64,000 nucleotides of DNA from an uncultured Cytophagales bacterium. Lineage in GTDB: Bacteria > Bacteroidota > Bacteroidia > Cytophagales > Bernardetiaceae. Position 1 is the stretch's first letter; every line of letters starts with the position of its first letter. The stretch lies in NCBI GenBank assembly GCA_963719525.1, contig CAVRCG010000004.1, positions 989,579 to 1,053,578 on the forward strand. The letters are read 5' to 3'. A program made the position numbers and the translations under genes. The notes beneath the pieces were generated by a model. It was not told the origin of the DNA, ran no database searches, and saw nothing but the letters and a program-made list of their open reading frames with translations. Below, one piece after another: positions 4,095 to 51,510 of this stretch.

Positions 4095-4128
4095 AGCCGA
4101 CAGTTTAATAAACTGTCGGTTTTTTTTG
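4095..4128 (+). terminator. Rho-independent terminator (CCGACAGTTT..AACTGTCGG hairpin + T8)
   Basis: Perfect stem followed by a T-run immediately after the ctp stop codon. Confidence 0.7.
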
Positions 4129-5234: not shown

Positions 5235-8200
5235 ATGCAGAATATTAATACAAATTTTACCAATCTCTTTGACATCAACAAGAAAGTCAAAACCTTATTT
5301 CTTTTATTCTTTGGTTTCTTTTTATCCTTTCAACTACAGGCTGCTGATTTTTTCTGGGTTGGAGGAAATGGAAACTGGAATGACTTTGCCACCCATTGGG
5401 CTACTACCTCTGGAGGAGGAACGTTTCACGCAAATGCACCAACAGCAACAGATAATATTTTTTTTGATGCAAATTCAGGTGCAGCAGGTTATACAGTTAC
5501 CTTAGATGTTGCAGCAGTAGCAAACAATTTTACATTTAGTGGAAATGCTTTTTCTTTTGCAGGAGCGAATAGTCTTACTGTAAACGGAACTTCTACAAAC
5601 TCTTCTACACAAGCAATTACTTTTGGAGGAACAAATACTTATACATTTACAGGAGCTTATACAGCCGTTGCAGGTTCTACTACTGGTTTTACTGGTTCTG
5701 GAGCAGTTGCTTTTAATAATAGCGTAACGATTGGAAACGGTTCTACATTTGGTTTTACCTCTTTAGCTACCACTACTGTTACAGGAGCTTTTAATTCTAC
5801 TACTACTTGTGCAGCCTTAAATACCATTAATTCTACTGGTGGAGCTGCAAATGTTACTTTTAATACTGCTTCTGCTTGGACAAATACAGATGTTACAAAT
5901 ATTGCAGCTACAGGTTCTGCCGTAACATTGCAAGGTGGTTCATTAACGACGAGTTCTGGAATTACAGTTACGCCTTCAGCACCTAGAAATTTATTTTGGA
6001 TTGGAGGAACAGGAAACTGGAACAACACAGCAAACTGGTCTTTAACAACTGGTGGTACAGGTGGAGAATGTATTCCGACAGCAACTGATGACGTAAATTT
6101 TGATGCAAATTCAGGTGTAGCAGGATATACCGTAACATTAAATGTAGCTGCAGTAGCTAATAATTTTACATTTAGTGGAAATGCTTTTTCATTTGATGGA
6201 GCAAGTAGCCTAACTGTAAGTGGAGTTTCTACTAACTCTTCTACAAATGCTATCACTTTTGGAGGTGCTGGCTCATATACGTTTGTAGGAGCTTACACAG
6301 CTAGTCCAGCTTCTACTACTCGTTTTACGACTACTTCTGCAGTTGCTTTTAATAATAGTGTAACGATAGGAAATGGTTCTACATTTAGTTTTACGCCTTC
6401 TGCTACTACTACAATAACAGGAGCATTTAATTCTACTACTACTTGTGCAGCTTTGAATACAATTAATTCTACTGGTGGAGCTGCAAATGTTACTTTTACA
6501 GGAGTTGCCAATTGGACAAATACAAACATTACAAATATTGCAGCCACAGGAGGTGTAACACTACAAAGTGGAACAATAACTACAAGTTCTGGAATTACAG
6601 ATTTGACTGTAAATAGAAATCTATTTTGGATTGGTGGAACAGGAAATTGGAACAATACTGCAAACTGGTCTTTGACAAGTGGAGGAACGGGTGGAGAATG
6701 TATTCCGACAGCAAACGATGATGTAAATTTTGATGGAGCTTCTGGTCTTGCAGGTGGAACAGTTACTTTGAATGTAGCTGCGCCTGTTCGTAATTTCAAT
6801 TATGATGTCGCTGGTGCTACTTTTGTGGCTGCAAATGCACTTACTGTAAATGGAATTACTACGATTGCAGCAACAAGAGCAATAAGTTTTAATGGAGTAA
6901 GTAGTTATATCTTTACAGGAAATTTTGTTGCTGGTACTACTACAACGACTAGCTTCTCTAGCTCGAATGGCTATTCGTTTGGCAATGTTACTGTTGGTGC
7001 AGGTTCTACGTTTAGGTTCTCTGCTAATGGGGCATTAGCTACTGCTACTGTTTCAGGTACATTTACACCAAACGGAACGTGTTCTAATCCTGTAATTTTA
7101 TCCTCAACTGGAGGTACTGCGCCTGTCAACTTTACAAACCCTCAAACTTGGAACGGTGTTAATGTAAGTCAAATTAATTCTACGGGTGCAAACGTAACTG
7201 TTAATAGTATTAGTGTCGTCGTAACAGGAAATTTTACAAACAATACAATTGCTGGCAGAACTTTATTCTGGGTAGGAGGAACTGGAAACTGGGACGACGA
7301 AACACATTGGTCGCTTACAAGTGGTTCGCCAACAGGGGGAGAATGTATTCCAACGATACTTGATGATGTAATTTTCAATAACGCATCCTTTTCAGCAGCA
7401 GGACAAATAGTAACGATGAATATTAATGGTATTTGTAAAAATATGACTTGGACAGGTATTACACCAGCCAGAAGTCCTGTATTTACAGGTGCAACTGCAA
7501 TAGAGTTTACATTAGCTGGTTCGTTGGTACTTAGTCCGAATATGACACAAACAGGAAATGCTCCTACTTTTCAAGGATTATGGAATTTTTCTTCTAACGT
7601 AGCCCAAACAGTTACTTCAAATGGAAGAGCATTAAACAGAGTTCAGTTTCAAACAGGAGCAACAGCTTCTTGGACATTACAAGATGCTTTCTTAGTTCAA
7701 AATAATACGCAACTTATATCAGGAACATTAAACACAAATAATCGACCTATATCTTCTGGTACACTTTCTACAAACAACGTAGTTCCTGTCGCTAGAACAC
7801 TCAATTTAGGTTCTTCTACTATTACGCTTACAAGTCCTTCTACTACTGTTTTAAACTATGGCAATGACGCTGATTTAACGCTTAACTCAGCTACAAGTAC
7901 TATCAACATTACAGCTACAAACTCTACAATAGAAACAGGAACATTAGCCAAAACAATGTCTAATCTAGTATATGCAGTATTAGGAAATGGAAACAGAGTA
8001 ATTAATACAGCTTCTAATACAAATATTATTACATTCCAATACATTTCAGTTTCTGATGGAGGTACTTTTAATATAAATGGAACCTCTCCAAAAGTATATC
8101 AAAATATTGATATTGGAAGTAATGTAGGAGGTACAATTACAGGTGCAGCGACAAATTTAGGAAATACAGTAAATGGAACTATTGCTGTTGGTAATAACGG

Positions 8201-10961
8201 AACTACTGTTTTTAGTGGAGGGTATGGAATTACTGGAAATGTAACTACTGGAGTAAATAAAACAATTAATTTCTCTGGAACAGGAAATAATAATTTTGGT
8301 GGAGCAGTAGTTATTGGAAATGGGGGTTCATTTTTATCAGGAGGAACAAAGAATAATACGTTCGTGGGTGTATTTGCACTAAATCCAACAGCAACAGCAA
8401 CATTCAGTAATACACCTGCTGCTTCTGAAAATTTGTTTTCAACTATTAGTATGAATAGTGGGACTACAATTGCGTTTAGTTCAGTAGCCAATTCTAGAGT
8501 TACAGCAACCATAAACTTAGTAGGTTCTTGTGCTGCACCAATTACGCTTACTTCAAACAATCCACCGAATCAAGCAAGATTACAGTTAGCAAATGCACTT
8601 AATTTGTTTGGTGCAACAGTTACAAATATTAATGCGACAGCACAACCTATAAATGTGTCAAATGGAACAGTTGCAAATAATACAAATGTAACTGGAAACG
8701 TAACTAGTAGAAATCTATTTTGGGTACATAGTATAATAGGTGCAGGTACAGCAAACTGGTACGATGCAGCAAATTGGTCTGCTACTTCTGGTGGAACAGC
8801 AGGGCAATGTCCTCCTACTATTTATGATAACGTTCGTTTTGATGCTAACTCATTCTCAGCAGCTAATCAAATTGTTGATATGGATAATGATGCTTTTTGT
8901 AGAAATATGAACTGGACAGGTGTAACAAATTCACCACGTTTACAATCTATTGGAGAAGATACAGATTTATATGTTGGTGGAAATCTAAATTTTGGAGATG
9001 CAACAGCAGCAGGTGCGATGGTAGTTGGTACAGGTGGAACAAATCCAAATGAGATTAGAAATATTAATTATGTAGCTACCGAAGCAATTCTAGGTTCTCC
9101 TGCAACATTAAATAATAGGATTGACTTAGGAATTGGATTGAATGAAAATGCAAATGGAAGACGTTTCAAGAGAGCCTTTTTTGATAAAAATGCAGCAGCA
9201 GGAAATACTGTTACTAGCAATGCTACTTGGACATTTGAATCTGCTTTTAATCTTACACAAGAAGCTAATACTTTTGCTGCACCTATTTATTCTACAGGAA
9301 CACTAAGGATAGTAGATGGAGATTTAATTACCTATAATGGTACTGATGATTTTGATGTGCAAATCAGAATTATTGACGCTAACGCTGTCGTAAACAGTTC
9401 TTTAGATATGGGTAATTCTAGATTTACACTAAGAGCAACAGGCAGGTCAGTAGATTTTACAGACGATACTAACTTTACTTTTATTACTCCAGGACCAAAT
9501 GCCTTTTTTAATATTACAGTAGGTTCTAACTCGGATGTATTTGTAGGTGCAAAGGCAAAAGAACTACCAGATATAGATTGGAATGCAGGCGATATTGATG
9601 TATTTACAGCAAATGGAAATAATCGCATTACATTTAGAAACATTACCATAGATGCAAATGCAAATCTGAATATGACAGGGAACTCTCCTAAAACATATTC
9701 AGAACCATTGGTTTTCCCAAATGGAGTAAACACTACTTTAAGAGGAAGTGACGGAACAACAAATACAAACATTTTTACTGGTGCTATAACTTACGGAACT
9801 GGCGTACAAGCTCGTTTTGATGGAGATAATCAGTTTCAAGGTGCTTTTACAGTAGGTTCAACCGTAAATAATACTACTGGAATTACTTTTACAGGAAATG
9901 GTCGCAATCGTTTTAAAGGAGATGTTACAATGACTGGAAGTAGTAGTAATTTCTTTTCTCTTCAAAATACTTCTGCTAATCCGAATACATTTACAAATGT
10001 ATCTATACAAAATTTACCTGTTTTATTTCCTGCTGTTACACCTGCTACTATTTGGGAGTTTAGTGGAAACTCGCCTAATACAGTAAGTGGAACATTTGCT
10101 ATCAATGCTGACTGTACTGCTCCTGTTTTTGTTAGAGCCAATACAGGAACAGCAAATGTAGCTTTTGCAAACAACCAAACGTGGAGTAATGTAACTGTAA
10201 CAAACATTAATGAAACAGGCGCAGGAACTGTAACTGTCTTGAGTGGTAGTGGAGCTGGCAATACCAATATTGTATTTACAGTAACAAATAGAACTTTATA
10301 TTGGGTAGGAAACAATGGAGATTGGGGTAATACTAATAATTGGTCAGCCATTTCTGGTGGTGCTGGTGGAGAATGTCTTCCTACATTATCGGATGACGTA
10401 TTTTTTGATGCCAATTCATTTAATGGAACAGGTCAAATCGTTACGATTAATGTAGATGCAGAAACAAGAGATATGACGTGGACAAATGCAACTAATAATC
10501 CAACTATCACAGGAACGAACGCTTTCAACTTGCAAATGGGTGGAGATGTTACGCTCATTGCAACCATGAACTGGAATTTTGATGGAGAAACATTCTTCCG
10601 TTATACAGATGCAGACGATGGCAGAAACACTATTATTTCAGCAGGACAAACCTTTAATGGACATGCAAATTTCTTTGATAATGATGGAGTTATTGATGGA
10701 ATATGGGAACTTGCAGATGCTTTTTCTACTGATAGAGTTTTCAGACTTACAGCAGGTACATTCACGACAAGCACAGCAAATCACGCTTTGAGAGCAGTCA
10801 TGCTAGATGTGAGTCAGGTAGGTGACCAGACAAGAACATTAAACCTTAACGGTTCGGTAACTACTGTATTCCGTAATAATGGACTGGCAGTAGATTTTAG
10901 AGGAAACACGACTAATTTTACATTAGCTTCTACACCAGCTTCTCAAATTCGCCTTACATGA
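5235..10961 (+). CDS. Giant repeat-rich T9SS adhesin-like protein, segment 1 of 3 (signal peptide + tandem ~210-aa repeats with the GTGNWNNTANWS...GGECIPT...DDVNFDANS motif)
   Basis: N-terminal signal peptide. Thr/Asn/Gly-rich tandem repeats are visible at both protein and DNA level. The ORF ends at a TGA, but the repeat structure continues in the +1 frame. Confidence 0.7.
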   Translation: MQNINTNFTNLFDINKKVKTLFLLFFGFFLSFQLQAADFFWVGGNGNWNDFATHWATTSGGGTFHANAPTATDNIFFDANSGAAGYTVTLDVAAVANNFTFSGNAFSFAGANSLTVNGTSTNSSTQAITFGGTNTYTFTGAYTAVAGSTTGFTGSGAVAFNNSVTIGNGSTFGFTSLATTTVTGAFNSTTTCAALNTINSTGGAANVTFNTASAWTNTDVTNIAATGSAVTLQGGSLTTSSGITVTPSAPRNLFWIGGTGNWNNTANWSLTTGGTGGECIPTATDDVNFDANSGVAGYTVTLNVAAVANNFTFSGNAFSFDGASSLTVSGVSTNSSTNAITFGGAGSYTFVGAYTASPASTTRFTTTSAVAFNNSVTIGNGSTFSFTPSATTTITGAFNSTTTCAALNTINSTGGAANVTFTGVANWTNTNITNIAATGGVTLQSGTITTSSGITDLTVNRNLFWIGGTGNWNNTANWSLTSGGTGGECIPTANDDVNFDGASGLAGGTVTLNVAAPVRNFNYDVAGATFVAANALTVNGITTIAATRAISFNGVSSYIFTGNFVAGTTTTTSFSSSNGYSFGNVTVGAGSTFRFSANGALATATVSGTFTPNGTCSNPVILSSTGGTAPVNFTNPQTWNGVNVSQINSTGANVTVNSISVVVTGNFTNNTIAGRTLFWVGGTGNWDDETHWSLTSGSPTGGECIPTILDDVIFNNASFSAAGQIVTMNINGICKNMTWTGITPARSPVFTGATAIEFTLAGSLVLSPNMTQTGNAPTFQGLWNFSSNVAQTVTSNGRALNRVQFQTGATASWTLQDAFLVQNNTQLISGTLNTNNRPISSGTLSTNNVVPVARTLNLGSSTITLTSPSTTVLNYGNDADLTLNSATSTINITATNSTIETGTLAKTMSNLVYAVLGNGNRVINTASNTNIITFQYISVSDGGTFNINGTSPKVYQNIDIGSNVGGTITGAATNLGNTVNGTIAVGNNGTTVFSGGYGITGNVTTGVNKTINFSGTGNNNFGGAVVIGNGGSFLSGGTKNNTFVGVFALNPTATATFSNTPAASENLFSTISMNSGTTIAFSSVANSRVTATINLVGSCAAPITLTSNNPPNQARLQLANALNLFGATVTNINATAQPINVSNGTVANNTNVTGNVTSRNLFWVHSIIGAGTANWYDAANWSATSGGTAGQCPPTIYDNVRFDANSFSAANQIVDMDNDAFCRNMNWTGVTNSPRLQSIGEDTDLYVGGNLNFGDATAAGAMVVGTGGTNPNEIRNINYVATEAILGSPATLNNRIDLGIGLNENANGRRFKRAFFDKNAAAGNTVTSNATWTFESAFNLTQEANTFAAPIYSTGTLRIVDGDLITYNGTDDFDVQIRIIDANAVVNSSLDMGNSRFTLRATGRSVDFTDDTNFTFITPGPNAFFNITVGSNSDVFVGAKAKELPDIDWNAGDIDVFTANGNNRITFRNITIDANANLNMTGNSPKTYSEPLVFPNGVNTTLRGSDGTTNTNIFTGAITYGTGVQARFDGDNQFQGAFTVGSTVNNTTGITFTGNGRNRFKGDVTMTGSSSNFFSLQNTSANPNTFTNVSIQNLPVLFPAVTPATIWEFSGNSPNTVSGTFAINADCTAPVFVRANTGTANVAFANNQTWSNVTVTNINETGAGTVTVLSGSGAGNTNIVFTVTNRTLYWVGNNGDWGNTNNWSAISGGAGGECLPTLSDDVFFDANSFNGTGQIVTINVDAETRDMTWTNATNNPTITGTNAFNLQMGGDVTLIATMNWNFDGETFFRYTDADDGRNTIISAGQTFNGHANFFDNDGVIDGIWELADAFSTDRVFRLTAGTFTTSTANHALRAVMLDVSQVGDQTRTLNLNGSVTTVFRNNGLAVDFRGNTTNFTLASTPASQIRLT

Positions 10962-10983
10962 ACCAGGAAGTCTGGATTTAGAA

Positions 10984-13674
10984 ATGGGAAGTGCAGCCAA
11001 AACAATTCCTAATCTATTTATTGATAATGCAAGTACAGGAGATGTAGTAAACATAAACACATCAGACTTACAAGCTCCAGCCAATCGTATCACGTTTAGA
11101 GATATTACAGGTGCACAAAATGGTCTTACCTTTAATGTAAATGGTGATGCTCCAAAAACGTATGGAAATATTAGTTTTCCAAATGATATGACGGCACGTT
11201 TTAATGGAACTCAAAATCCTCTGACAAATCCATCAACAACATTACCAGAAACAGACACAAATATTTTTGGAGGAACAGTCAATTTTGGTACAAATACAAG
11301 AGTAACTTGGAATTCGGATAATACCTTCAAAGACGATGTGGAAATAATATCTACTCCTACTAACGTTGATAGAGCAGTAAATTTTGTAAGAAATAATATT
11401 TTTACCGTTGATGCACCACTTACATTTACAGGACCAGGTTGGGCAAGAGTTGGATTTAATGCAGATAATACTTTCACAGAGTTTGGAGCAGCCGTTGCTT
11501 TTAATGGAACACGCAACATTCTTAGATTTGATGGAAATGGTAATACAGAGCTTATTTTCAAAAGCACACTTTTTGTTAATTCGAATGGAGGCGCACAAGC
11601 CGATGTAGATTTTAGATCTCAAGCAACATTTGAAGGTAATGTAGAATTCGGAGAAGCTACAGGAGGAGATGCTACGGCAGAAATGTTTTTTAATAATGGT
11701 ATTTCTATGCCCAACATAAATACAACCTTTACGATGGGAGCAGACTCAAGAATGAGAATACGAGGTGCGCCTGTTAGGTTAAGAGATATGATTATTGGAG
11801 AAAACAATGAGATTACGTTTAATAGTACTGTAGAGATAGATAATATGCAGCTCTCCAAATTTGATGTAATTAACTTTCCTCAAAGTAGTGGAGGTGCAAA
11901 TTCAGGAACTACTACCATTAATGAATACATTACTGCTAGAGAAGATTGTGCAGGTTGGATAAATCTTCGCTCAAATCTAACAGGCGTACAAGCGCAGATA
12001 GATTTTGAAACTGCACATACAACAGTAGGAAACAGAAACTTCCTCTATACTTTCGTTCAAGATATTTGGAACAGAGACTTGGGTGGAAATCCATTGCAAG
12101 TAGTACAAGCAGACCCTGATGTAGTTTCTGATATTGGAAATAATGATGGTATTACATTTATCAATAATGTAGCTTCTCGTACTTTCTACTGGGTAAGAAG
12201 TGATAATGAAAAAGCAAATAATCAAAACAGCACAGGAAATTGGAATGATTTGGATCAAGATAATCACTGGGCAACATCTTCTGGAGGAAATGCAGTAGGT
12301 TGTATTCCAACAGCAAACGATAACGTCGTATTTGATGATAATTCATTTAGTTATACAGAAGCAGGTCAAGAACCAGAAGTAGTTACATTAGATAAGTTCT
12401 TCTCGTATGCCAAAAACATAACTTGGAATGTTACTTCAGATGCAAGTAGAGCCAGATTGATAGGAGATGATGCTAATACATTACAAATATTTGGTTCATT
12501 GTTATTCCAAAACAATATCACAGATGCAGATTGGAACGACTTTGAAGGTCTTACAGAATTTAAAGGTATAGCGACAGCCAACACTACAAAAACCATTGCC
12601 ATGAATGGCGCAAGATTAAATGGTCCTATTCTATTCAATGCACCAAATGATGTCTGGACAATCACAGATAATATGCGTGTAGAAGGAGGAGGAAGAGCAG
12701 ATATTACCTTCAACTATGGAGAAGTAAGAGCAGGAAACAATACCATTTCTTTAGAAGATAATTGGACAATAAACCTTCCTACTGCAGGTTTGAACCAATC
12801 TCTTTTTATAGCTGAAACAAGTACAGTAAACTTTAATGGAAATCAAGACGCACATATAAATATACTTGATCATCAAACAAATGCTAACTGTCTGGAGTGT
12901 TCGGATCAGAGTGCTGCCACTTCCCAGTTAAGAGGGTGTAGTGGAAGTCCTTTTTACAATCTTGTAGTGGATAAGCGTTATAATAGAAGATTAGAACTTC
13001 GTCAGACTATCAATATCTATAATAATCTTAGTATTTTAGTAGGAATTCTTGAAGATGACGGCTGGCAGATACGAGGAAATACAATAGGAACAGTAACGAT
13101 GGCAGATAATACGTGGTTACGTTTAGGAGCAGATGATAATGCAACTGCTTTTCCTACATGTTATCCATCTGCAAACATTACGTTAGGAGATGGTAATCCT
13201 GATGGTCGTATGAATAATTCTCTTAATCCAGATAACGTAACTACAAATCTGAAAGCATCTATTGTAGAATACCGTTGTCCAGATGCTCAACTTGTTCGTG
13301 GAGATATTACGTATGGTACTTTGCGTCTTAGAAGTGACGGAGGAGCAGGAGCAGGTAATCATATAAAACGTTTTACAGATGGAAACACGACTATAAATGG
13401 TAGTTTCATTATAGATGAAAGACAAATCGTTTATGATATGGGGTATCAAATAATAGGAAATAGTTTTAGTGAAGGAAATAGATTTGAGATGCGTGGTAAC
13501 TCTCAACTTATTTTAGGTACAAATCAAACTATAGCTGAACGTACTTACAATATAACTGTACGACCAGGTATTACTATTCCAACACCAGTAGCAGCAGATT
13601 TGGTTACTACGTTTCCTAGCTTTACTAATGGAGTCTACTCCTATGAACGACATCGCAAATGGTGGCAAAATTGA
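10984..13674 (+). CDS. Giant T9SS adhesin, segment 2 of 3 (frame +1 relative to segment 1; frame open from 10927)
   Basis: No signal peptide or ribosome-binding site of its own. The sequence family continues from segment 1 (…LFWVGG…NWN…CIPTANDNVVFDDNS). Confidence 0.65.
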   Translation: MGSAAKTIPNLFIDNASTGDVVNINTSDLQAPANRITFRDITGAQNGLTFNVNGDAPKTYGNISFPNDMTARFNGTQNPLTNPSTTLPETDTNIFGGTVNFGTNTRVTWNSDNTFKDDVEIISTPTNVDRAVNFVRNNIFTVDAPLTFTGPGWARVGFNADNTFTEFGAAVAFNGTRNILRFDGNGNTELIFKSTLFVNSNGGAQADVDFRSQATFEGNVEFGEATGGDATAEMFFNNGISMPNINTTFTMGADSRMRIRGAPVRLRDMIIGENNEITFNSTVEIDNMQLSKFDVINFPQSSGGANSGTTTINEYITAREDCAGWINLRSNLTGVQAQIDFETAHTTVGNRNFLYTFVQDIWNRDLGGNPLQVVQADPDVVSDIGNNDGITFINNVASRTFYWVRSDNEKANNQNSTGNWNDLDQDNHWATSSGGNAVGCIPTANDNVVFDDNSFSYTEAGQEPEVVTLDKFFSYAKNITWNVTSDASRARLIGDDANTLQIFGSLLFQNNITDADWNDFEGLTEFKGIATANTTKTIAMNGARLNGPILFNAPNDVWTITDNMRVEGGGRADITFNYGEVRAGNNTISLEDNWTINLPTAGLNQSLFIAETSTVNFNGNQDAHINILDHQTNANCLECSDQSAATSQLRGCSGSPFYNLVVDKRYNRRLELRQTINIYNNLSILVGILEDDGWQIRGNTIGTVTMADNTWLRLGADDNATAFPTCYPSANITLGDGNPDGRMNNSLNPDNVTTNLKASIVEYRCPDAQLVRGDITYGTLRLRSDGGAGAGNHIKRFTDGNTTINGSFIIDERQIVYDMGYQIIGNSFSEGNRFEMRGNSQLILGTNQTIAERTYNITVRPGITIPTPVAADLVTTFPSFTNGVYSYERHRKWWQN

Positions 13675-16600
13675 ATTGAATGGTGCTTCGACTGTTATTT
13701 ACAACGCAAGTGCGAATCAACAGATAGCCAAAGGTTTTACGTATGGTAGTGTTATTCTACGTGCAACAGGCGCAACAACACCAGTAATAAAAACTATATT
13801 TCCTGTAGTCGTTCTTCCAGTTGTGGCTACTGATGAAATAAGAGTAACTAATCAGCTTATCATTGAAGAGTTTAATTACATGATAGATGCAGGAAATCAG
13901 ATAAAAGCCATAGCAGGTGGAAATCCAAAATTGGAAGCTAAAGAAAACACAAAACTGTTTTTAGGAAATCAAACGATTGCTACTAGATTTCCTACTGTTT
14001 TTGTACGAAATGATATAACGTTGTCTGCTACCAATCCAGTTAGTGCAAATGCTCACGAAACGATTTATATTTCTGATGTAGCACAAACGATGTCTACCGA
14101 ACCAGAGTACGCCAACCTAACGCTTGAAGCACCAAATCTAACGCTTGATGCAATGGTAGAAAAACGTTTTTCAAGTGTTGGAACGCCTAGTAATTTGTCA
14201 GATGCTTATATCCGTGGTAATCTTCTAATAAAAATAAGAAATTATCTATTAGATGACGGTAATCAAATAAGAGGACTAAATGGGCTTACACAGAGTTTTA
14301 CGATGAAGGGTGATGTACCTAATCAAGGACGTAGCTGGATTAGTTTGGGTGAAAACACGTTTGGAGATGTTGCGACTCAGTTCCCTACTTTCTTTGAAAA
14401 CGTTAGTTTAGAAGATTCTACAACGGTAGTTTATAATGCAGGTTCTGTTGTTCAGTCTGTGAGAGGAACAGGATTAAATGTTATGACTGCATTGACAACA
14501 CAATCCTATTATAATCTGATTATACAATCAGGTGTAAAAATAAATGCTATTAAACGTCTGCAAGAACCGATGCGTATTCGTAACGATTTTACAATCCGTA
14601 GATTGAATCGTTTTGAAGACAACAAACAGCAAGTAACAGGTAGTACAATAGGAACAATGAGAATGGAAGAGAGTTCCAATCTATATATTGGTATAAATAC
14701 AGGTGCAGCTCCTAGAAGTGTGTTTCCAACTAATTATAGCAGACCAAGAATTATTTTGAATAATAATGCGACTACACCTTCTACAGTTAGATATTTATCA
14801 AGAGGAACAGGAGCAAACATTCAAAAAGTGTCTAGTGAACCTATTTATAGTAATCTGTTTTTGACTTCTGGAAATACAAGTGCAGGAGCAAATATTGTGA
14901 TGCAAGTTGATCCAAATCCTTTAGTTGTGCCTAGCATACCTAGAACAGAAATCAATGTAACCAGAAATCTAACAGTAGATTATAGAGTTCGTTTTGAAGA
15001 TATGGGTGTTCAGATTGTAGGAAATACTACAAATACATTATTAGTAAATGATGGTTCTGAATTGGTGCTAGGTGTAGAAGATATTTCTACACTATTTCCT
15101 ACTAATTTTGTAGCAGCTAATATCAACCTCAAACCAACGGTAGTAAACAAAACAACAGTTATTTATAATTCTGGTGTAATAGGAAATAATATTTCGGGTT
15201 TGCCAAATTATGGTAATCTTACTCTTAATAATGCAAGAGCAACAGGAACGATTACCAAAAACTTACTTGGAGATATAAATGTATTTGGTAATTTACTGGT
15301 AAGGCAACGAAACGTTCTTGAAACAACTACGAATAATTACAACATAAACTTAAAAGGAAATTGGACAGTAGAAACTAACGGAGTGTTTAATTCTCAAGCA
15401 GGTAGAGTAATTCTTAGTGGTAACTCGGTACAGCAGTTGAGAACTAATTCGGCACAAAACCAAAAGTTTTATGAGTTGGAAGCTAATGCTGGTCTGGTAG
15501 GAAGTTTCCGTATGTTTGATAACGTAATTATAAAAACAGGAGGAAAGACTATTTTTAATAATGGTCTATTTGTTCCTAACGATGTAGGTCTAACAAGTAC
15601 TATCAAGATGGTTTTTGAAGCTAATGCTACTGTAGGTGGGACAGGAACATATACGCCAGCTAGTTGGGTAAATATATCTGCTCCTGCATTATCTGCAAAC
15701 GGACCTAGTAATGTTAGTCACGTAGTAGGAAAGGTAGAAAAGCAAGGTACAGATGCCTTTATGTTCCCTATTGGAAATGGTGTAAATTATGCACCAGCAG
15801 GATTAGGAGTAAGAAACAATTCTACTTATGAAATTCGTTACGTCGGACCTCGTTTTCCTACCACAGACGGTTATGATGTAACTCTGAAAGAACCAACTAT
15901 TTATGGAGTAAGTAATGTAGAATATTGGCGTATAGACCCAATCAATGGAACTACTTCAACTTCTGCACCTGCTTATGTGTATTTGAGTTGGGATAACCCT
16001 CGTAGTGTAGCTTATCAACCAGAAGGATTAAAAGTGTTGAGATGGAATGGTGCTTTATGGACAGACAAATTCTTAGGAGGACATTCTAATGCTTCTGCAA
16101 AAGGAGTTATTGCTAGTCAGAATGTCGTAACTGAGTTTAGTCCATTTACTTTAGGAACTATAAACCAATTCAACCCACTTCCATTGGACTTACTTTCTTT
16201 TGATGCCAAAATAGAAGGTGAATCTGTAAAGGTAAGCTGGGAAACGACTAACGAGATAGACAATTCTCACTTTATGGTTCAGCGTAGCCAAGACGGAAAC
16301 TCGTTTGGTACTTTAGGGCGTGTAAATGCAAAAGGAACAGGATTAGAAGGAACATTTAATTATCAGTTCTGGGATGCAGAGCCGTTTGAAAATCTTTCTT
16401 ATTATCGTTTGAAAATGTTTGACTTGAATGGTGATTTTAAATATTCTCCAATAAGAAGTGTATTATTTGAAAAAGTAGTGAGTGGAGTACAAGGAGAAAT
16501 CAGTTTATATCCAAATCCGAATGGTGGCGCACGTTTCTATCTAAACCTTAATGGAATACTGACTACAGATGCAAAGGTACAAGTTATTGATATGGTAGGT

Positions 16601-16741
16601 AGAACGGTTCATACACAAGATGTACAAAAAGGAGGAGATAATATAATAATTACTCCAAACAGAACGCTACCAGCAGGAACATATATTTTACGTTTCGTTA
16701 CTCCGATTGAAACTATTACTAAGAAGTTTGTAGTAGAATAA
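13628..16741 (+). CDS. Giant T9SS adhesin, segment 3 of 3 (frame +1 again; ends in a T9SS C-terminal sorting domain)
   Basis: Overlaps segment 2 by 47 nt in another frame. The C-terminus (…ISLYPNPNGGARFYLNL…GTYILRFVT…KKFVVE) is a Por/T9SS C-terminal domain. Confidence 0.7.
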   Translation: MESTPMNDIANGGKIELNGASTVIYNASANQQIAKGFTYGSVILRATGATTPVIKTIFPVVVLPVVATDEIRVTNQLIIEEFNYMIDAGNQIKAIAGGNPKLEAKENTKLFLGNQTIATRFPTVFVRNDITLSATNPVSANAHETIYISDVAQTMSTEPEYANLTLEAPNLTLDAMVEKRFSSVGTPSNLSDAYIRGNLLIKIRNYLLDDGNQIRGLNGLTQSFTMKGDVPNQGRSWISLGENTFGDVATQFPTFFENVSLEDSTTVVYNAGSVVQSVRGTGLNVMTALTTQSYYNLIIQSGVKINAIKRLQEPMRIRNDFTIRRLNRFEDNKQQVTGSTIGTMRMEESSNLYIGINTGAAPRSVFPTNYSRPRIILNNNATTPSTVRYLSRGTGANIQKVSSEPIYSNLFLTSGNTSAGANIVMQVDPNPLVVPSIPRTEINVTRNLTVDYRVRFEDMGVQIVGNTTNTLLVNDGSELVLGVEDISTLFPTNFVAANINLKPTVVNKTTVIYNSGVIGNNISGLPNYGNLTLNNARATGTITKNLLGDINVFGNLLVRQRNVLETTTNNYNINLKGNWTVETNGVFNSQAGRVILSGNSVQQLRTNSAQNQKFYELEANAGLVGSFRMFDNVIIKTGGKTIFNNGLFVPNDVGLTSTIKMVFEANATVGGTGTYTPASWVNISAPALSANGPSNVSHVVGKVEKQGTDAFMFPIGNGVNYAPAGLGVRNNSTYEIRYVGPRFPTTDGYDVTLKEPTIYGVSNVEYWRIDPINGTTSTSAPAYVYLSWDNPRSVAYQPEGLKVLRWNGALWTDKFLGGHSNASAKGVIASQNVVTEFSPFTLGTINQFNPLPLDLLSFDAKIEGESVKVSWETTNEIDNSHFMVQRSQDGNSFGTLGRVNAKGTGLEGTFNYQFWDAEPFENLSYYRLKMFDLNGDFKYSPIRSVLFEKVVSGVQGEISLYPNPNGGARFYLNLNGILTTDAKVQVIDMVGRTVHTQDVQKGGDNIIITPNRTLPAGTYILRFVTPIETITKKFVVE

Positions 16742-16777
16742 TCGACAATAAGACAGAAGTAAAATTGTAAGCAAATA

Positions 16778-16816
16778 GAAAAGCCTTTTATCAGAAATGA
16801 TAAAAGGCTTTTTTCA
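16778..16816 (+). terminator. Rho-independent terminator (AAAAGCCTTTTA..TAAAAGGCTTTTTT)
   Basis: Stem-loop plus T-run 37 nt after the adhesin stop codon. Confidence 0.7.
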
Positions 16817-16904
16817 TACTTCAAAAAAACTATTTCACGCTTTATTGATAAACCATATTATTTAAAAAAGATAAAACAATAAAGTCAGAAGGCAATTTCC
16901 TTAA

Positions 16905-16935
16905 CTGGTAACTGGTAACTGGTAACTGGTAACTG
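16905..16935. repeat. Heptamer microsatellite (GGTAACT)x4
   Basis: Four perfect tandem copies. Related TGGTAACTG / CTGATAACTG runs occur at 55135-55160 and 58447-58480. Confidence 0.6.
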
Positions 16936-16938
16936 ATT

Positions 16939-17462
16939 TTACTTCATCACAGGTTCTGCAAAAACACAGGCGTTTACATTTCCAAAACGAAGTGTATCAA
17001 AACTTTGTGCTTTTTTGCGAAGCTCATCAATCGTAATTCTCAATTCTCCAATAAGATCATCATCATTATAAAAACGACCTGTCTTTACGCCCATTTTCTT
17101 ATCGTAATCATAAAACTTAATTGTCAGTTCTACATTTGGTTTTGTATCTGGAATATAAAACGGTTTTACTTTCTTCCATTTTGGTTTGAAGTCATCTTTT
17201 ATAGACTCTGATTCAAAAACTCGGTCTTGCCCAAGCCAAATTTCATAATATACATCTGGTTTATGGTCATACGAAAACATATTTACAGGTGCCAATTGCT
17301 TGAGTTTGAGGGCGATTCGTCAACACTTACAAATGCAGGTCGTATTTGTACGGCATACGTATTTTCTGGCTGCCGAGTACTCTCACAACTAAAAGCCAAA
17401 AAAGAAAACGATAATAAAGTCAGAAACAAATAAAATGAAGAATAGTGTTTTGGTAATTTCAT
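16939..17462 (-). CDS. Hypothetical lipoprotein, apparently frameshifted: a 59-aa ORF carrying a lipoprotein signal peptide (MKLPKHYSSFYLFLTLLSFSFLAFSC, 17283-17462) in a different frame from the 118-aa body ORF 16939-17295
   Basis: The signal-peptide ORF ends 12 nt inside the start of the body ORF. The body has no canonical ATG at its listed start (TTG). The body has weak C2-domain-like character (YDYDKKMGVKTGRFYNDDDLIGELRI). Confidence 0.45.
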
Positions 17463-24216: not shown

Positions 24217-24597
24217 ATTACATACCATTTTATTATGAGAAATTAAAAAGCAATTCTATTATACAGAGTTGCTTTTTCTATTTCAAAAATAACCTCTAAC
24301 AACGTATAGCCTAAAATCACAAAAAATAAATATTTGTTAAAAAAATCGTAAGCTAACTTAGCTTTTATAAATAAAAAGTGTTATCTTTAAACTACACGCT
24401 ACAAATATTACTTCGCTTTTATTTTATTCTAACTAGAATATTAATCCTATTAAATCATAACAACTATGTATTTTAATACTATTTTGTTAAACTATGGTTT
24501 TTGAGTTGATAAGAGAAGTAACCACTAATAATTAAAATTGAATAAAACTTTTTTATTCAATTCCAATTTGCTTTATTATTTTAAACCTTATTGCCTT

Positions 24598-27500
24598 ATG
24601 TACAAAAATTACATAATCGGTATTTTTTTATCATGTCTATTTTTAGGCTTCTTAATGATAAATCAAAATGCCTTCGCACAGACAGAACAATGTGCTACTG
24701 AAACTATCCACGATTCAAAAATGGCTAATGACCCTATATATAGAGCCAAGTTTGAAGACAACCAAGAAAAAATGAAAGCGCATATCGCTAGAATAGTAGA
24801 AAACTCTTCTAATCAGCGTACAGAAGCGACTGTTTATACTATTCCTGTTGTAGTTCATATTGTCCGTCCTAATGATACAGAACCACAATATAATCCTAGT
24901 GATGCCTTAGTAAATGCTATGATTCAGAAAATGAACGATGACTATAGAGCCGTAAATAGTGGTACAGATGTAGAAGTGCAGTTTGTTTTGGCGCAAAGAA
25001 ATCCAAACTGTGGTACTACAAATGGAATAAACAGGATTTTATATACAGACGCTACTTATGTAGCTAGTGGAGTGAGTGTACCTGTTAATCCTCCTACTAC
25101 ACCAGGACCAGGAATAACTGATTTGGCATTAAAAAATGAATCTAGAAATCAATCTGGAAGATGGTCAAATACAGATTATTATAACATTTGGGTAGTACAT
25201 AAATTAGATGGGTTGAATGGAGATAACGTAACACCAGGACAAGGATATACAGCAGGTTACGCTTATTTTGCTTCTGGCAATAACGCAGATACAGATGGAA
25301 CGATATTAATTGCAGATCAAGTAAACGCTACAAGTACTACGGCTACTCACGAAGTAGGTCATGCGTTAGACTTGTATCATACTTTTAGAGGAGTAACACA
25401 AACAGGCGCAACTACATATAACTGTCCAACAGGAGCTTGTGCTACTTCAGGAGATGAAATCTGTGATACTGAACCTCATCATGTCAATCATTGTGGAAAT
25501 GAAAATGTATGTGCAACAGTTACTGATAATTCAATAAAAAATTATATGTCTTATTGTGGTGGAACTGATAGGTTTACGGCTAATCAAATTACTCGTATGC
25601 GTGCAGCTTTGGAAACACTAAGAGGAGGACTTATTTCTTCTTTGGGAGGAACTGCTCCTAGTGGAACATTGCCAGTAGTTGCTTGTACTCCAACACATTC
25701 AGGTACAGCAGACAATAGTGTAGGAATTACAAGAGTTAAGTTGAATACAATAAATGTTGTTTCGCCTGGTGCAGGAGAAGGAACATACACAGACAGAACC
25801 TGTTTGCAGGCAACCACTGTATCAGCAGGTTCAGCTCATACTATTACAGTCGAAACGGCTTTTAATCCTCACAACATAAAAGTATATATAGATTATAATA
25901 GAGATGGCGATTTTTTAGATACTGGAGAAGAAATTGCTTCGGGTTCTTCAACAAATGCATTCGGAGTCTTAACGTTTAGTGCTAATTATAATTTTCCTAG
26001 TACAGGAATCACATTTAATCAGCCTTTGCGCCTTCGTGTCATAACGGCATTCGTAAATACTACGCCTAGTTCGTGTGCTATGACAGAAGGAGAAGCAGAA
26101 GATTATTCTATTACGGTTCAAAGTACAGCCACAAACACAATTACTTTAGGAACAATACCTACTACTACCTATTGTGCAGGCTCTACTATCTTTGTTCCCT
26201 TTACCTTTACAGGTACTTTCACAGGAACAAATACATTTACAGCACAACTTTCAGATGCTGCTGGTAATTTTGGAACGCCTAGCGCAACCCAAATAGGAAC
26301 AAGTTCGATTGCTTTAACTATTCCTACAACTGCCACAGCTTCTGCAAATTATAAAGTACGTGTAATTGCTTCTGACCCAGTTACTACGAGTAATGAATCA
26401 GCCTTAATTACTATCAATGTGCTACCACTAGACCGAACTATTACAGCAAATCCTGCTAGTATTACAAGTGGAAATACTACAACTGTTGAAGTTCCAAACT
26501 CAGAAAATGGAGTTTCTTATCAGTTGCAAGACGTTTCAAATGGTAATGCAGATGTAGGAACAGCAGTAGTAGGAAATGGAGGAACAATTCAACTTCCTAC
26601 TCAAAATCTTACAGCAAACAATGATTTTAGAGTAGTAGCCACGAATGCTACAACTACTTGTTCACGTACATTAAATACAGTAACGGTTACAGTAACGGCA
26701 GCTACAGCACCTACTATTTCTGTAACTACTCCTACTACTGGTTGTTCTGGAGAAAATATCAATATTGCTTTCACTACTACTGGCACGTTCGCAGGTGCAA
26801 ATACCTTTACAGCACAGGTATCTGATGCAACAGGAAATTTTGCTACACCATTTGCAACAGGAACAGGAACATCAAGTCCGATAACAGTTGCAGTACCAGC
26901 AGCTTCTACAGCGTTTGCAAATTATAAAGTTCGTGTACTCGCTTCAAGCCCAGCCACAACAAGTAATGAATCAGGTACTTTTGGATTGAATGAAGCACCT
27001 CTTCAACGAACAGTAGTTGCGACACAATCAAGTGTTCCGACAGGAACAGGTACAACCCTAAAAATTCCTAATTCAGAAGTAGGAGTAAGTTATAATCACG
27101 ACGGAACTCCGACAGCAGGAACAGGAAATGATTTGTTCCTTCCTACTGGAAACCTAACATCGGATACAGATTTTACTGTAGCGGCACAGCACGACAATTC
27201 TCTCTGCCCAGCTTACTTTAATGTAGTAACCATTACGGTAACAGCAGCTCCTACAAACACAATTACTTTGGGTACTATTAATCCAACCTATTGTGCAGGC
27301 GCAACTATCAACGTTCCCTTTACCTTTACAGGTACTTTCACAGGAACAAATACATTTACAGCACAACTTTCAGATGCTGCTGGTAATTTTGGAACGCCTA
27401 GCGCAACCCAAACAGGAACAAGTTCGATTGCTTTAACTATTCCTACAACTGCCACAGCTTCTGCAAATTATAAAGTACGTGTAATTGCTTCTGACCCAGT

Positions 27501-29972: not shown

Positions 29973-30009
29973 ATTTCAAAAAATATTTACTCATTAAATT
30001 AGTTAAGCT

Positions 30010-30222
30010 ATGTTCAAAAAAATTGTATTATTCCTAATTAGTTTTTTTATTATAGATTTTGCGTTCGGACAAGGGGGAGGATTTCCTGTCGATCCAAATG
30101 CTGCTGTACCCATAGACGGAGGGCTTTCTCTTCTTTTGGCAGCAGGTGCAGCTTATGGAGCTAAAAAAGTCTATGACTTTAAAAATAAAGACAATCAAGA
30201 TGAAGAAAACGAAGCGAAATAA
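30010..30222 (+). CDS. Small secreted or membrane-anchored peptide (70 aa) with a sorting-signal-like tail (VPIDGG, hydrophobic helix, KK)
   Basis: Signal peptide MFKKIVLFLISFFIIDFAFGQ. Then PIDGGLSLLLAAGAAYGAKK, which resembles the Pro/GlyGly-TM-basic architecture of exosortase/rhombosortase-type C-terminal sorting signals. Then an acidic tail. Confidence 0.4.
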   Translation: MFKKIVLFLISFFIIDFAFGQGGGFPVDPNAAVPIDGGLSLLLAAGAAYGAKKVYDFKNKDNQDEENEAK

Positions 30223-30369
30223 GGTTGCTTTATAAAACTTTATGTAGATCCTTATTTTTTGCTTTTTTGAAGTGAAAAGTAAGGATTTTTTATTTGTTTA
30301 AATTTGTTACTTCTGTTTAAATTTTCCATATTTAATGTCATTAATTTTTATGTTTTAAATTATTTAGAT

Positions 30370-38574: not shown

Positions 38575-38605
38575 TGCTTGATTGTTGAGTGCAGCCGTAT
38601 AATTT

Positions 38606-39226
38606 TCATTTTTTTCCTTCTGACTTAACTGTAATGCTTGTTGAATATAATTTTCTGCCTTCTTCGATCTGTTTAGTTGTATAATAAAGCAAACCCAAAT
38701 TATTGATAAGTTTTGGATATAATGGATGTGAGGTTTTGTTCAATCGTTTAAATTCTTGTTCTGACTTCAAAAAACTCTGTTCTGCACGTTTGTAAGAACG
38801 AGAAGAATAAGCAATTTCTCCCAAATCATAAAAATCTTTTGCAGCCTGTAAAGGGTCGTTTGAGTTTTGGTCAGTTACTCCAGATTCGTCAGAAAGACGA
38901 ACCAAAAGACGCTTTGTTTTTTGTCCTTTTTGTTTTTCTTCATACAAATCAGTATTGTCTATAAAAGCAATCGCATAACCAAAAGTAGCTGTATCATACG
39001 AAGTTCGAAGTTCTGTAAGTTCTTCATTTACAATGTTTTCAGCTCGTTCTTCTACTTTATCCTCTGCTTCATTGAGTATTTTGTCTTGCAATTTTTCTGC
39101 TTTTTCTTCTGCTTTTTTCTTGATTTTATCCAGCCAACCTTGAGCGTACAGATTGGTAGAAAATAAGATTGAAATTGTGAAAATAAGAGAGAGTACAGAG
39201 AGTTTAAAAAATAATTGATTTTTCAT
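38606..39226 (-). CDS. N-terminal segment of the TPR-CHAT protein (signal peptide + coiled-coil + first TPR); separated from the rest by a frameshift in a T7/A7 homopolymer at 38609-38615
   Basis: Signal peptide MKNQLFFKLSVLSLIFTISILFSTNLYAQG. The ORF ends …SEGKK* inside an A7 run. The next frame reads …ENYTAALNNQAMIWKDKGLY…, continuing the TPR pattern. Confidence 0.65.
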   Translation of the reverse strand: MKNQLFFKLSVLSLIFTISILFSTNLYAQGWLDKIKKKAEEKAEKLQDKILNEAEDKVEERAENIVNEELTELRTSYDTATFGYAIAFIDNTDLYEEKQKGQKTKRLLVRLSDESGVTDQNSNDPLQAAKDFYDLGEIAYSSRSYKRAEQSFLKSEQEFKRLNKTSHPLYPKLINNLGLLYYTTKQIEEGRKLYSTSITVKSEGKK

Positions 39227-39995: not shown

Positions 39996-40137
39996 TTTTA
40001 GACAAAACTGAATTAGAAATTTTGAGTTTACATAAAGTGGAAGTAAAGAAATAAAGAGAAATGTAAACTATAAAAAGTAAAATCACGTTTGTAGAAGTAA
40101 CGTTACTTAAAATACTATTACTATAAATCAAAAAGAT

Positions 40138-40353
40138 ATGCGAGATCAAGAAATATACTCAAAATTATTCTTATTAAATTCAGAAAATTTGAAACAAGAA
40201 CTACTCAATTTTATGGATTATTTGCTTACAAAACAGTTTGAAGAAGTATCAACAAAGAAAATTCCTCAGTTTGGTTGTGCGAAGGGAAAGTTTAGAATGA
40301 GTGATGATTTTGATGAGCCTTTAGACCATTTTGATGACTACATGCCTAATTGA
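40138..40353 (+). CDS. DUF2281-like antitoxin-type small protein (orphan; no adjacent PIN/toxin gene)
   Basis: C-terminal …GCAKGKFRMSDDFDEPLDHFDDYM matches the GSAKG-x-MSDDFDAPL-x-F-x-YM signature I recall for DUF2281 antitoxins. Family recalled from memory, not searched. Confidence 0.45.
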   Translation: MRDQEIYSKLFLLNSENLKQELLNFMDYLLTKQFEEVSTKKIPQFGCAKGKFRMSDDFDEPLDHFDDYMPN

Positions 40354-51078: not shown

Positions 51079-51112
51079 AAATACGAAATATTTGGGAGAA
51101 ATGTTTGTTTTT

Positions 51113-51510
51113 GTGAAAAATACTAGGGGCGAGGGAATAGGGGCGAGGGTCGTGGGAATTACTGGGTCGTGAAAAATACTAGGGGCGAGGGAATAGGGGC
51201 GAGGGTCGTGGAAATTACTGGGGGCGAGGGAATAGGGTTGAGGGTCGTGGGAATTACTGGGTCGTGGAAATTACTGGGGGCGAGGGAATTGGGGCGAGAG
51301 TCGTGGGAATTACTGGGTCGTGGAAATTACTGGGGGCGAGGGAATAGGGTTGAGGGTCGTGGGAATAAGGAATAATAAAAAAATGACTTTTCACACGCCC
51401 CTCGCCCCAATTCACACGCTCCAACTTTCATTTCACACGCCCCTCGCCCCAATTCCCACGCTCCAACTTTCATTTCACACGCCCCTCGCCCCAATTCACA
51501 CGCCCCTAAC
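51113..51510. repeat. GC-rich tandem repeat arrays: 51113-51378 (~56-bp unit GAAAAATACTAGGGGCGAGGGAATAGGGGCGAGGGTCGTGGGAATTACTGGGTCGT, about 4.5 copies) then the reverse-complement family 51380-51510 (~42-bp unit TTTCACACGCCCCTCGCCCCAATTCACACGCTCCAACTTTCA, about 3 copies)
   Basis: Directly repeated GC-rich units in an AT-rich genome. The two halves are mutual reverse complements (GGGGCGAGGG vs CCCTCGCCCC). The ORF-track ORFs 51169-51375 and 51320-51535 are only translations of these repeats. Confidence 0.8.

Follow-up and report, generated by a model that had tools for sequence, protein, structure and literature searches.

A giant gene for a T9SS-exported protein in a Cytophagales bacterium, divided over three reading frames by two extra bases of probably technical origin

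To judge from sequence and homology, three successive reading frames in the genome of an uncultured Cytophagales bacterium are a single ancestral gene for a surface protein of about 3,830 residues, broken by two extra bases. These bases, together with three further one-base lesions in neighbouring genes, are probably indel errors in the consensus of the deposited 3.8-Mb assembly, stemming from base calling or polishing. The gene lies in a stretch of 64,000 nucleotides that was analysed as a whole and is called the window below.

In the table of open reading frames, the + strand carries three large ORFs at 5235-10961 (1908 aa), 10984-13674 (896 aa) and 13628-16741 (1037 aa). Their start coordinates modulo 3 are 0, 1 and 2, which bears out the two successive +1 shifts that an earlier note on this DNA had claimed. 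Segment 1 (5235-10961, +) occupies frame 0 with 1908 codons and closes on a TGA at 10959-10961. Segment 2 (10927-13674, +) is open throughout in frame +1, with a first ATG at 10984, and segment 3 (13592-16741, +) is open in frame +2 from 13592, with a first ATG at 13628. Two frames are open together over 35 nt, from the opening of frame 1 at 10927 to the closing of frame 0 at 10961, and over 83 nt, from the opening of frame 2 at 13592 to the closing of frame 1 at 13674; these are exactly the overlaps that had been noted before. When one base is removed per junction, a conceptual protein of 3,834 aa with zero stops is obtained, in agreement with the product of about 3,800 aa proposed earlier. 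In an NCBI/ENA-derived collection, segment 1 is found as protein P0003, on a contig of 3,796,523 bp, and segment 2 as protein P0001.

The export signals are distributed over the two ends of this construct, as the earlier note had observed. On inspection of its translation, segment 1 starts with a Sec-type signal peptide of 36 residues (5235-5342, +; MQNINTNFTNLFDINKKVKTLFLLFFGFFLSFQLQA, with cleavage after LQA and in front of AD), consisting of a K-rich n-region and the hydrophobic core TLFLLFFGFFLSF. The mature protein begins with ADFFWVGG, and a mature end ADF(F/Y)WVGG is common to the L002 ORF and P0002, the two relatives of which the N-termini were read. The N-termini of segments 2 and 3 (MGSAAKTIPNLF... 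and MESTPMNDIANGG...) are not hydrophobic. Residues 960-1036 of segment 3 (16505-16735, +) form a T9SS type A C-terminal sorting domain (Por_Secre_tail), recognized by TIGR04183 (E=1.7e-10, 40.7 bits, cut-off 23) and by PF18962 (E=5.2e-7, 30.3 bits, cut-off 27). As recorded, signal peptide and sorting domain are on separate ORFs, and they come to lie on the same polypeptide only after the removal of one base per junction; in all three relatives they share one polypeptide, which finishes with the type A domain TIGR04183. The region encodes one T9SS-exported protein of about 3,834 residues, interrupted in the record by two single extra bases, each of which pushes the reading frame by +1. If these bases are errors of the record, the real organism would make it as one chain, which would pass the inner membrane by the Sec system; the T9SS would recognize its C-terminal domain, and the protein would end up on the cell surface or be released from it. 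Three further Por_Secre_tail proteins are encoded within the 64-kb window, which suggests that the T9SS is active.

In a search with a junction-spanning query of 1,193 aa and a scan of species-representative genomes, which did not return the source genome itself, three relatives only were found, originating from uncultured Cytophagales and from one sequencing run. The L002 ORF (3,379 aa) is 58.8% identical to the joined protein in one BLASTP alignment, which pairs merged residues 462-3834 with residues 36-3379. P0002 (1,816 aa; 47% identity) and the L003 ORF (3,812 aa; 28% identity) likewise cross both junction positions as single ORFs. The ORFs of L002, L001 and L003 are uninterrupted at both positions, with no frameshift, and segment 3 aligns with their C-terminal parts. 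The closest matches to the giant gene in the searched collections have 47-59% identity, with nothing nearer, and two metagenome scans, one with the alignment and one with the pattern RITFRDIT...PKTYG, yielded zero relatives. No synteny of the flanking genes with the L002 orthologue locus was seen. A comparison with orthologues had been suggested in the earlier note; the relatives have single ORFs, an arrangement of three ORFs with their own starts was not found among them, and the claimed continuity of the sequence family holds, since orthologues pass over both junctions within a single ORF.

Both lesions can be placed within narrow limits. The TGA stop at junction 1 (10953-10961, +) arises through one extra base, at about 10956-10959, within CTT ACA T GA. 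Frame 0 reads ...ASQIRLT up to this stop and frame +1 reads HEPGSLDLEMGSAAKTIPNLFID, while the equivalents in the orthologues are SQIRLTGNGNISIEAGTESKTFPNLFID (L002) and SQLRLLGNGDLTIETGSTAKTIPNIEI (P0002), with unchanged spacing. At junction 2 (13627-13649, +) one extra base falls at some point between FPSFTN in frame +1 and DIANGGK in frame +2, and the single-frame equivalents are FPKFT...DIADGGKIDL (L002) and LPKFTNSGLLDDRANGGKMDL (P0002). The stop of frame +1 comes only at 13672-13674, past this junction.

In the joined protein, seven modules each open with a FWVGGxGNW...GGxCIPTxxDDVxFD motif and are predicted to be beta-solenoids. Furthermore, there are six 'DxGxQIxG...FPTxF' units, one of which is cut by junction 2. 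A 629-aa module, conserved in two orthologues and matched by two paralogous modules within segment 1, is interrupted by junction 1 at its residue 222, inside a predicted beta-solenoid stretch with a pLDDT of 87-88. It is this position, together with the uninterrupted ORFs of the relatives and the non-conserved methionine starts, that argues for one gene rather than three. Three independent genes, the separate products of which would assemble after translation, seem practically out of the question. In-frame ATG codons at 10984 and 13628 are present and two of the three segments are catalogued as proteins, but the segment 2 methionine is Ala or Thr in orthologues and that of segment 3 is Leu. 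In addition, a signal peptide is lacking in segments 2 and 3, homology runs on through the 35- and 83-nt frame overlaps, a conserved module and its predicted solenoid would be cut mid-way, and every relative is a single ORF. The lack of a ribosome-binding site in front of segment 2 is weak evidence, as the use of Shine-Dalgarno sequences is generally low in Bacteroidota. Between 4000 and 17700, a search for terminator-like hairpins gave four matches, which is at chance level, and none is at either junction. The sole match inside the giant gene is a minimal one of 5 pairs in segment 1 (8801-8813), while a terminator-like palindromic hairpin at 16779-16812 is situated downstream of the gene. Matches in a sigma-70 promoter scan of the giant-gene region were at chance level as well, and the Bacteroidota -7 motif TANNTTTG is too common to place promoters.

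The gene does contain internal repeats. At its 5' end (5348-6890, +), a repeat search revealed a unit of about 633 nt (about 211 aa) in three tandem copies, with 65-87% identity and spacings of 636 and 630 nt (family D1/D3), whereas the L002 orthologue carries one such unit. A 56-nt motif occurs in seven copies, one of them in segment 2. The pair that had been given as 5806-5866 and 6440-6500, with about 95% identity, is in fact 89% identical (54/61), and the partner is shifted by +2, to 6442-6502. However, the detectable DNA repeats touch neither junction. In the junction windows there is no homopolymer of more than 4 nt, in line with the earlier statement that neither junction sits in a long one, and neither a repeated 14-mer nor a tandem repeat at either site. 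Recombination between the internal repeats was rejected as a cause, both junctions being outside every repeat, and so was phase variation by slipped-strand mispairing, for which a simple-sequence repeat or long homopolymer is missing at the junctions. Because the junctions are outside the repeats and the same type of lesion is present in three non-repetitive genes, the proneness of the gene to recombination or misassembly, put forward earlier, does not account for its division.

These three genes, encoding Tex, a TPR-CHAT protein and a C2-domain lipoprotein, each contain one isolated 1-nt indel, while their close relatives are intact. The C2 lipoprotein gene (16939-17462, -; 174 aa), which adjoins the giant gene, has one missing base between 17286 and 17285. 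Its downstream fragment matches Pfam C2 (E=1e-9), and the joined construct is covered for 100% by intact homologues of 174 aa with 80-84% identity; where P0281 reads ...NSSNWDMINMFSYDHK, the window gene reads ...NSSNWHL, a stop and then NMFSYDHK. In the TPR-CHAT gene (36253-39226, -), where open frames overlap, there is a surplus base at about 38659 (GAAGAAG[G]CAGAA); once it is removed, an ORF of 990 aa results. Residues 183-985 of the intact, 985-aa protein P0130 align with this ORF starting at query residue 25, which precedes the called ATG, with 85% identity straight across YYTTKQIEEAENYIQ. The Pfam HHH_3 domain of the tex gene (48510-51078, -) is divided between two ORFs (1-23 and 24-65) by an additional base at about 49499 (GGTTTGG[A]GACC). 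The repaired Tex aligns over 20-715 with Tex of P. aeruginosa (2oce/3bzc; E about 1e-213) and shares 88% identity with that of Bernardetia sp. ABR2-2B, which is intact; at the DNA level (85% identity), the base at about 49499 is the one isolated gap with a length not divisible by three. With the giant gene included, 4 of the roughly 43 genes in the window (about 9%) thus carry isolated 1-nt indels, five in total, and these all avoid repeated DNA and runs of more than 2-3 nt. Every gene fragment is still open over its full length, with 75-88% identity to intact relatives, and no nonsense codon, larger deletion or second lesion was seen in the Pfam-checked genes of the window.

It could be imagined that the shifts are programmed, the full-length protein being made by a ribosome shift or a quadruplet-decoding tRNA at both junctions. 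This is very improbable. Both shifts in the giant gene, and most lesions in the window, are +1, and junction 1 is directly at an in-frame UGA, which gives it a superficial resemblance to the frameshift site of prfB. Unlike prfB, however, junction 1 (CGC CUU ACA UGA A) has neither a slippery P-site codon of the CUU-U type nor an upstream Shine-Dalgarno-like stimulator, and re-pairing of its ACA on CAU is impossible. The three relatives are without a frameshift at either position, so that the shift is not conserved in orthologues. Nor is junction 2 at a stop codon: the zero-frame stop comes about 8-16 codons past the shift at junction 2, in tex and in the TPR-CHAT gene, with a minimum of 8 codons at junction 2 even when counted from the last position at which the shift could occur. 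No motif is common to the four +1 sites, and the fifth lesion, in the C2 gene, is opposite in sign. A shared quadruplet codon or methylation site was looked for as well, but TGGAG occurs only at junction 2 and in tex and was dismissed as a coincidence. A search of the window for tRNAs and known RNA elements gave no match. Equally far-fetched is that the lesions are truly in the DNA while full-length proteins such as Tex and the giant protein are made by unusually efficient, context-independent frameshifting or quadruplet decoding, many genes then being spread over more than one frame.

The remaining choice is between errors of the record and real mutations. The earlier note had left open whether the gene is a recent pseudogene or the result of an indel error; a single ancestral gene is retained with either cause, and the balance has now moved from the pseudogene to the record. 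Record error is favoured because three more one-base lesions occur in unrelated, non-repetitive neighbouring genes. The lesion class recurs at high density in unrelated genes of the same record, as in an assembly artefact. This recurrence is shown, as are the location and sign of each lesion and the single-gene ancestry of the giant gene, whereas a technical rather than mutational origin is what we infer. According to one study (PMC12007338), long-read assemblies carry gene-fragmenting frameshifts; the lesions here are similar to such errors of poorly polished or long-read assemblies, as isolated 1-nt indels split intact genes of any family into neighbouring ORFs of shifted frame, in this window several per 64 kb.

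Real and very recent mutations, which would make the giant gene, tex and the TPR-CHAT and C2 lipoprotein genes fresh pseudogenes, are unlikely, though clearly less so than recoding. Such a situation might arise by relaxed selection or an indel-prone spectrum, for example in a relative of Bernardetia that has a reduced genome, is associated with a host or was passaged in the laboratory. The product of segment 1 would in that case be a periplasmic fragment of 1,908 aa without sorting domain, and those of segments 2 and 3 would fail to be exported. The lesions do stand in the deposited sequence, P0001 and P0003 are catalogued separately, the affected genes are all of non-essential types, and the source contig is 3.80 Mb in comparison to the 5.3-Mb contig of the closest named relative, Bernardetia sp. 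ABR2-2B. The avoidance of homopolymers, unlike the commonest sequencing artefact, is also in line with mutation, but real spontaneous 1-nt indels likewise favour homopolymer runs, and such runs are absent at the lesions. Moreover, all five lesions are of 1 nt, without a nonsense mutation, IS insertion, larger deletion or secondary decay being seen, the fragments are otherwise intact, gene density is normal and the intergenic gaps contain no eroded remnants. About 9% of broken genes, with the conserved tex among them, would be unusual for a free-living Cytophagales bacterium.

Several observations were counted against assembly error. For the giant gene, the searched collections offer no match closer than 47-59% identity. 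Nanopore indel errors concentrate in homopolymers (PMC9262707), and the sites found here differ from this pattern in being outside homopolymers. The source genome, with 3.80 Mb, is smaller than the 5.3-Mb contig of Bernardetia sp. ABR2-2B and might belong to a lineage in genome reduction with real, fresh pseudogenes. The four affected genes are all plausibly dispensable.

If the lesions are errors of the record, the main value of the case is one of caution: the largest surface protein, spread over three frames, would be neither a recoding event nor a noteworthy pseudogene, and its division would be a symptom of a record in which about one in ten window genes is broken by a one-base indel. Since about one tenth of the window genes are split, this assembly needs polishing before its gene calls, protein lengths and counts of pseudogenes can be trusted. 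If the lesions are real, they would represent an abrupt, indel-driven loss of genes, the biggest surface protein included. The repaired gene provides a full-length member of a family of T9SS type A cargo proteins in Cytophagales that are rare, uncharacterised and rich in beta-solenoids, with lengths of 1,800-3,800 residues; this is of modest interest for research on gliding and adhesion.

The protein probably acts at the surface, yet the label 'adhesin' given to it before is not sustained, as no adhesin domain was detected and there is only a weak resemblance to beta-helices. An AlphaFold2 model of one module, built on a 4-sequence alignment (pLDDT 72.9, pTM 0.70), consists entirely of short beta-strands. 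In this it weakly resembles autotransporter passengers (pertactin, EspP, EspC, Hbp and Ag43), which are right-handed parallel beta-helices. The best matches of the model to the PDB in Foldseek are exclusively beta-helices, namely such passengers, PL6 lyases and tailspikes; none is significant (best E 0.017, TM 0.2-0.3). In contrast to autotransporters, a beta-barrel translocator is lacking and the T9SS route is used.

The protein is also comparable to the giant T9SS cargo of gliding Bacteroidota, such as SprB and RemA of Flavobacterium johnsoniae and the large CHU_C proteins of Cytophaga hutchinsonii. It shares with them a Bacteroidota host, a Sec signal, a C-terminal sorting domain and thousands of residues of repeated beta-rich modules. 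SprB-type proteins carry a type B sorting domain, whereas the protein described here has type A (TIGR04183) and no Pfam-recognised repeat. The distinction between type A and type B sorting domains is drawn in PMC9143113. Distant homologues of the giant protein bear PF13585 (CHU_C), and one of them is named 'gliding motility-associated-like protein'.

The giant gene at 5235-16741 (+) is divided over three segments, which the ORF table places at 5235-10961 (1908 aa), 10984-13674 (896 aa) and 13628-16741 (1037 aa), all on the + strand. Their starts are 0, 1 and 2 modulo 3, and therefore the frame undergoes two successive +1 shifts, as the earlier note had described. At junction 1, between segments 1 and 2, frame +1 is open from 10927 and frame 0 closes at 10961; at junction 2, between segments 2 and 3, frame +2 is open from 13592 and frame +1 closes at 13674. 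According to this stop-to-stop analysis, the junction windows of that note are exactly the stretches in which two frames are open together. Its assignment of export signals also stands: a classical signal peptide opens segment 1, segment 2 has none and starts non-hydrophobic, as does segment 3, and segment 3 ends in a type IX secretion system (T9SS) sorting domain (TIGR04183, E=1.7e-10; PF18962, E=5e-7; type A).

Removal of two bases, one per junction, yields 3,834 residues with zero stops. With a query of 1,193 residues across both junctions, a protein of 1,816 aa (P0002), whose gene is complete on its own contig, is found at 47% identity and 99% query coverage. A scan of species-representative genomes added two Cytophagales metagenome-assembled genomes, in which the loci L002 and L003 each hold one uninterrupted ORF, of 3,379 and 3,812 aa, respectively. 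In BLASTP, the L002 ORF and the joined protein give a single aligned segment (58.8% identity; residues 462-3834 of the joined protein, 36-3379 of L002), and the N-termini are alignable too. TIGR04183 forms the C-terminal end of all three relatives. Where segments 2 and 3 have their start ATGs, the relatives have Ala/Thr and Leu, respectively, and these ATGs are therefore not conserved starts. The proposed comparison with orthologues thus gives single ORFs and no separately initiated three-gene arrangement; homology rules out three independent genes, a reading that deserves virtually no credence. The junction-spanning query also found segments 1 and 2 themselves, catalogued as separate proteins (P0003 and P0001) from an NCBI/ENA contig of 3,796,523 bp. 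Segment 3, at least with the 13628 start, is absent from the public protein collection and is not among the matches to a query that includes 150 residues from its start. It may be handled otherwise in the source annotation. Judged by these searches, the family appears to be rare, with P0002, L002 and L003 as its only clear relatives, and none was found in a metagenome contig collection. Remoter matches (28-34% identity) contain CHU_C type B domains, and one source labels its copy 'gliding motility-associated-like'.

The relatives also allow the extra bases to be located. At junction 1 they read SQIRLTGNGNISIEAGTESKTFPNLFID and SQLRLLGNGDLTIETGSTAKTIPNIEI, where the window has, at the same spacing, SQIRLT* in frame 0 and HEPGSLDLEMGSAAKTIPNLFID in frame +1, so that a single extra base lies within ACAT at 10956-10959. 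At junction 2 their single-frame reading, FPKFT...DIADGGKIDL and LPKFTNSGLLDDRANGGKMDL, places it between 13627 and 13649. Neither junction has a homopolymer longer than 4 nt, in agreement with the earlier note, and no tandem repeat, repeated 14-mer or terminator-like hairpin was found at either one. The internal repeat, put at about 95% identity before, measures 89% (54/61).

Annotation of the rest of the window by Pfam exposed further split genes. The tex gene (48510-51078, -) consists of ORFs 49465-51078 and 48510-49514, which divide its HHH_3 domain at profile positions 23/24. Without base 49499 the protein aligns at 20-715 to P. aeruginosa Tex (E ~1e-213), and from end to end it shares 88% identity with Tex of Bernardetia sp. 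ABR2-2B; every one of the 120 homologues listed is a single protein of 742-831 aa. Such a match puts the source organism within or close to Bernardetia (Bernardetiaceae, Cytophagales). In the tex DNA, which is 85% identical, the sole isolated gap with a length not divisible by three is the extra window base, GGTTTGG[A]GACC vs GGTTTGG-GGGC. A TPR-CHAT gene (36253-39226, -) is split into ORFs 38606-39226 and 36253-38574, with frames overlapping by 134 nt. Omission of base 38659 (GAAGAAG[G]CAGAA) gives 990 aa, 85% identical and unbroken through YYTTKQIEEAENYIQ when compared with P0130, an intact protein of 985 aa; P0130 aligns from its residue 183 and reaches 31 codons upstream of the called ATG. 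Finally, in a C2-domain lipoprotein gene (16939-17462, -), convergent with the giant gene, a signal-peptide ORF is separated from a C2 ORF, and the alignment indicates one base missing between 17286 and 17285. Eight relatives, 167-174 aa long and 66-84% identical, match the joined product, three of them with full coverage; the intact homologues of 174 aa reach 80-84% identity. Over the whole window, this makes five sites in 4 of about 43 genes, with one base inserted at four of them and one base deleted at the fifth, and none of the five lies in a long homopolymer or within repeated sequence.

The two shifts in the giant gene are probably the result of incomplete consensus correction of the assembly. 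Consensus error fits better than gene decay because the lesions are uniformly isolated 1-nt indels, every fragment is otherwise perfectly preserved, the lesions extend to the conserved housekeeping-type tex and to a small gene of 174 aa, and no nonsense codons, IS elements, bigger deletions or second lesions were seen among the genes checked by Pfam. PMC12007338 describes gene-fragmenting frameshifts as a known feature of long-read assemblies. There is a smaller chance that the lesions are real, very recent mutations, since the named relative has a larger genome than the source, the genes hit are plausibly dispensable, and the sites are non-homopolymer, unlike those where, in the account of PMC9262707, nanopore errors concentrate. 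Programmed +1 frameshifting is all but excluded: the shifts are not conserved in relatives, slippery codon and stimulator are both absent, three of the four +1 sites precede the zero-frame stop by 8-16 codons, the sites share no common motif, and one lesion is opposite in sign. The earlier alternative of a pseudogene or an indel error was broadly right, with an artefact of the record as the best explanation. Its appeal to repeats as the cause fails, as the sites are outside repeated DNA and the same lesions occur in other genes. The giant gene was just the largest target (11.5 kb, two lesions), and neither its size nor its repeats set it apart. The useful outputs are a repaired gene model and a caution on this assembly.

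The repaired protein is modular. A motif of 56 nt that encodes GGxC-IPTxxDDVxFD is present in seven copies, six of them in segment 1 and one in segment 2, each preceded by FWVGGxGNW and starting a module of ~210-630 aa. Modules one to three are tandem N-terminal units of ~633 nt (~211 aa) each, at 5348-6890 (+), the L002 orthologue (7310-17449) has one only, and P0002 is without the first ~1,680 residues and several C-terminal FPT units; therefore, module number varies widely within the family. Junction 1 falls at residue 222 of the sixth module, which aligns to two orthologous and two paralogous modules; the conserved AKTxPN, NRITFRxIT and SPKTY blocks past it belong to segment 2 here, and in all other copies they share one ORF with the part before the junction. 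The AlphaFold2 model built for the sixth module from a 4-sequence alignment predicts short beta-strands only (pLDDT 72.9, pTM 0.70; pLDDT 87-88 around junction 1). Foldseek gave no significant match in the PDB (best E=0.017), and the top matches are all parallel beta-helices, such as the autotransporter passengers EspC, EspP, SepA, Hbp and pertactin, so that a beta-solenoid description of the predicted module is suggestive only. The C-terminal third has six 'DxGxQIxG...LxLG...FPTxF...IxL...TVxY' units, the second of which is interrupted by junction 2. A terminator-like hairpin lies on either side of the locus, at 4095-4121 and at 16779-16812; the sole such match within the gene, at 8801-8813 in segment 1, is minimal (5 pairs). 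T9SS substrates require both a Sec signal peptide and a C-terminal domain, as stated in PMC12618676, and type A proteins are attached to anionic LPS according to PMC9143113. As a surface protein the repaired product is plausible, and the three unrepaired fragments are implausible.

T9SS substrates abound in the window, with two adjacent paralogous cargo genes at 24538-29895 and 30304-32373 (+; M43 peptidase, GEVED, Por_Secre_tail) and a further one of PKD/Ig type at 60548-63400 (-). A small ORF at 30007-30222 (+) encodes a 71-aa exported peptide, whose C-terminal end, a Gly/Ala-rich hydrophobic segment followed by basic residues, looks like a sorting tag, and another at 40111-40353 (+) encodes an antitoxin-like DUF2281 protein (Pfam E=1.6e-16). 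There are 162 copies of the Bacteroidota-type -7 promoter motif TANNTTTG in the whole window vs 102 +/- 10 in shuffles, an excess spread across coding and non-coding sequence and therefore of no help in locating promoters. A 992-aa ORF at 52054-55032 (-), with ~550 nt of non-coding DNA upstream, has Type ISP coupler, N6 methylase and Type_ISP_C specificity domains; nuclease and ATPase parts are absent, which leaves two readings, a motor-less variant and a truncated restriction-modification gene. The ORF adjoins a 23S rRNA intervening-sequence protein gene (51506-51868). Between the latter and tex, the DNA at ~51100-51500 gives, on translation, repetitive low-complexity peptides in several frames (GRGNRGEGRGNYW... 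on one strand, HAPRPNSHAPTF... in another frame) and looks like a tandem repeat.
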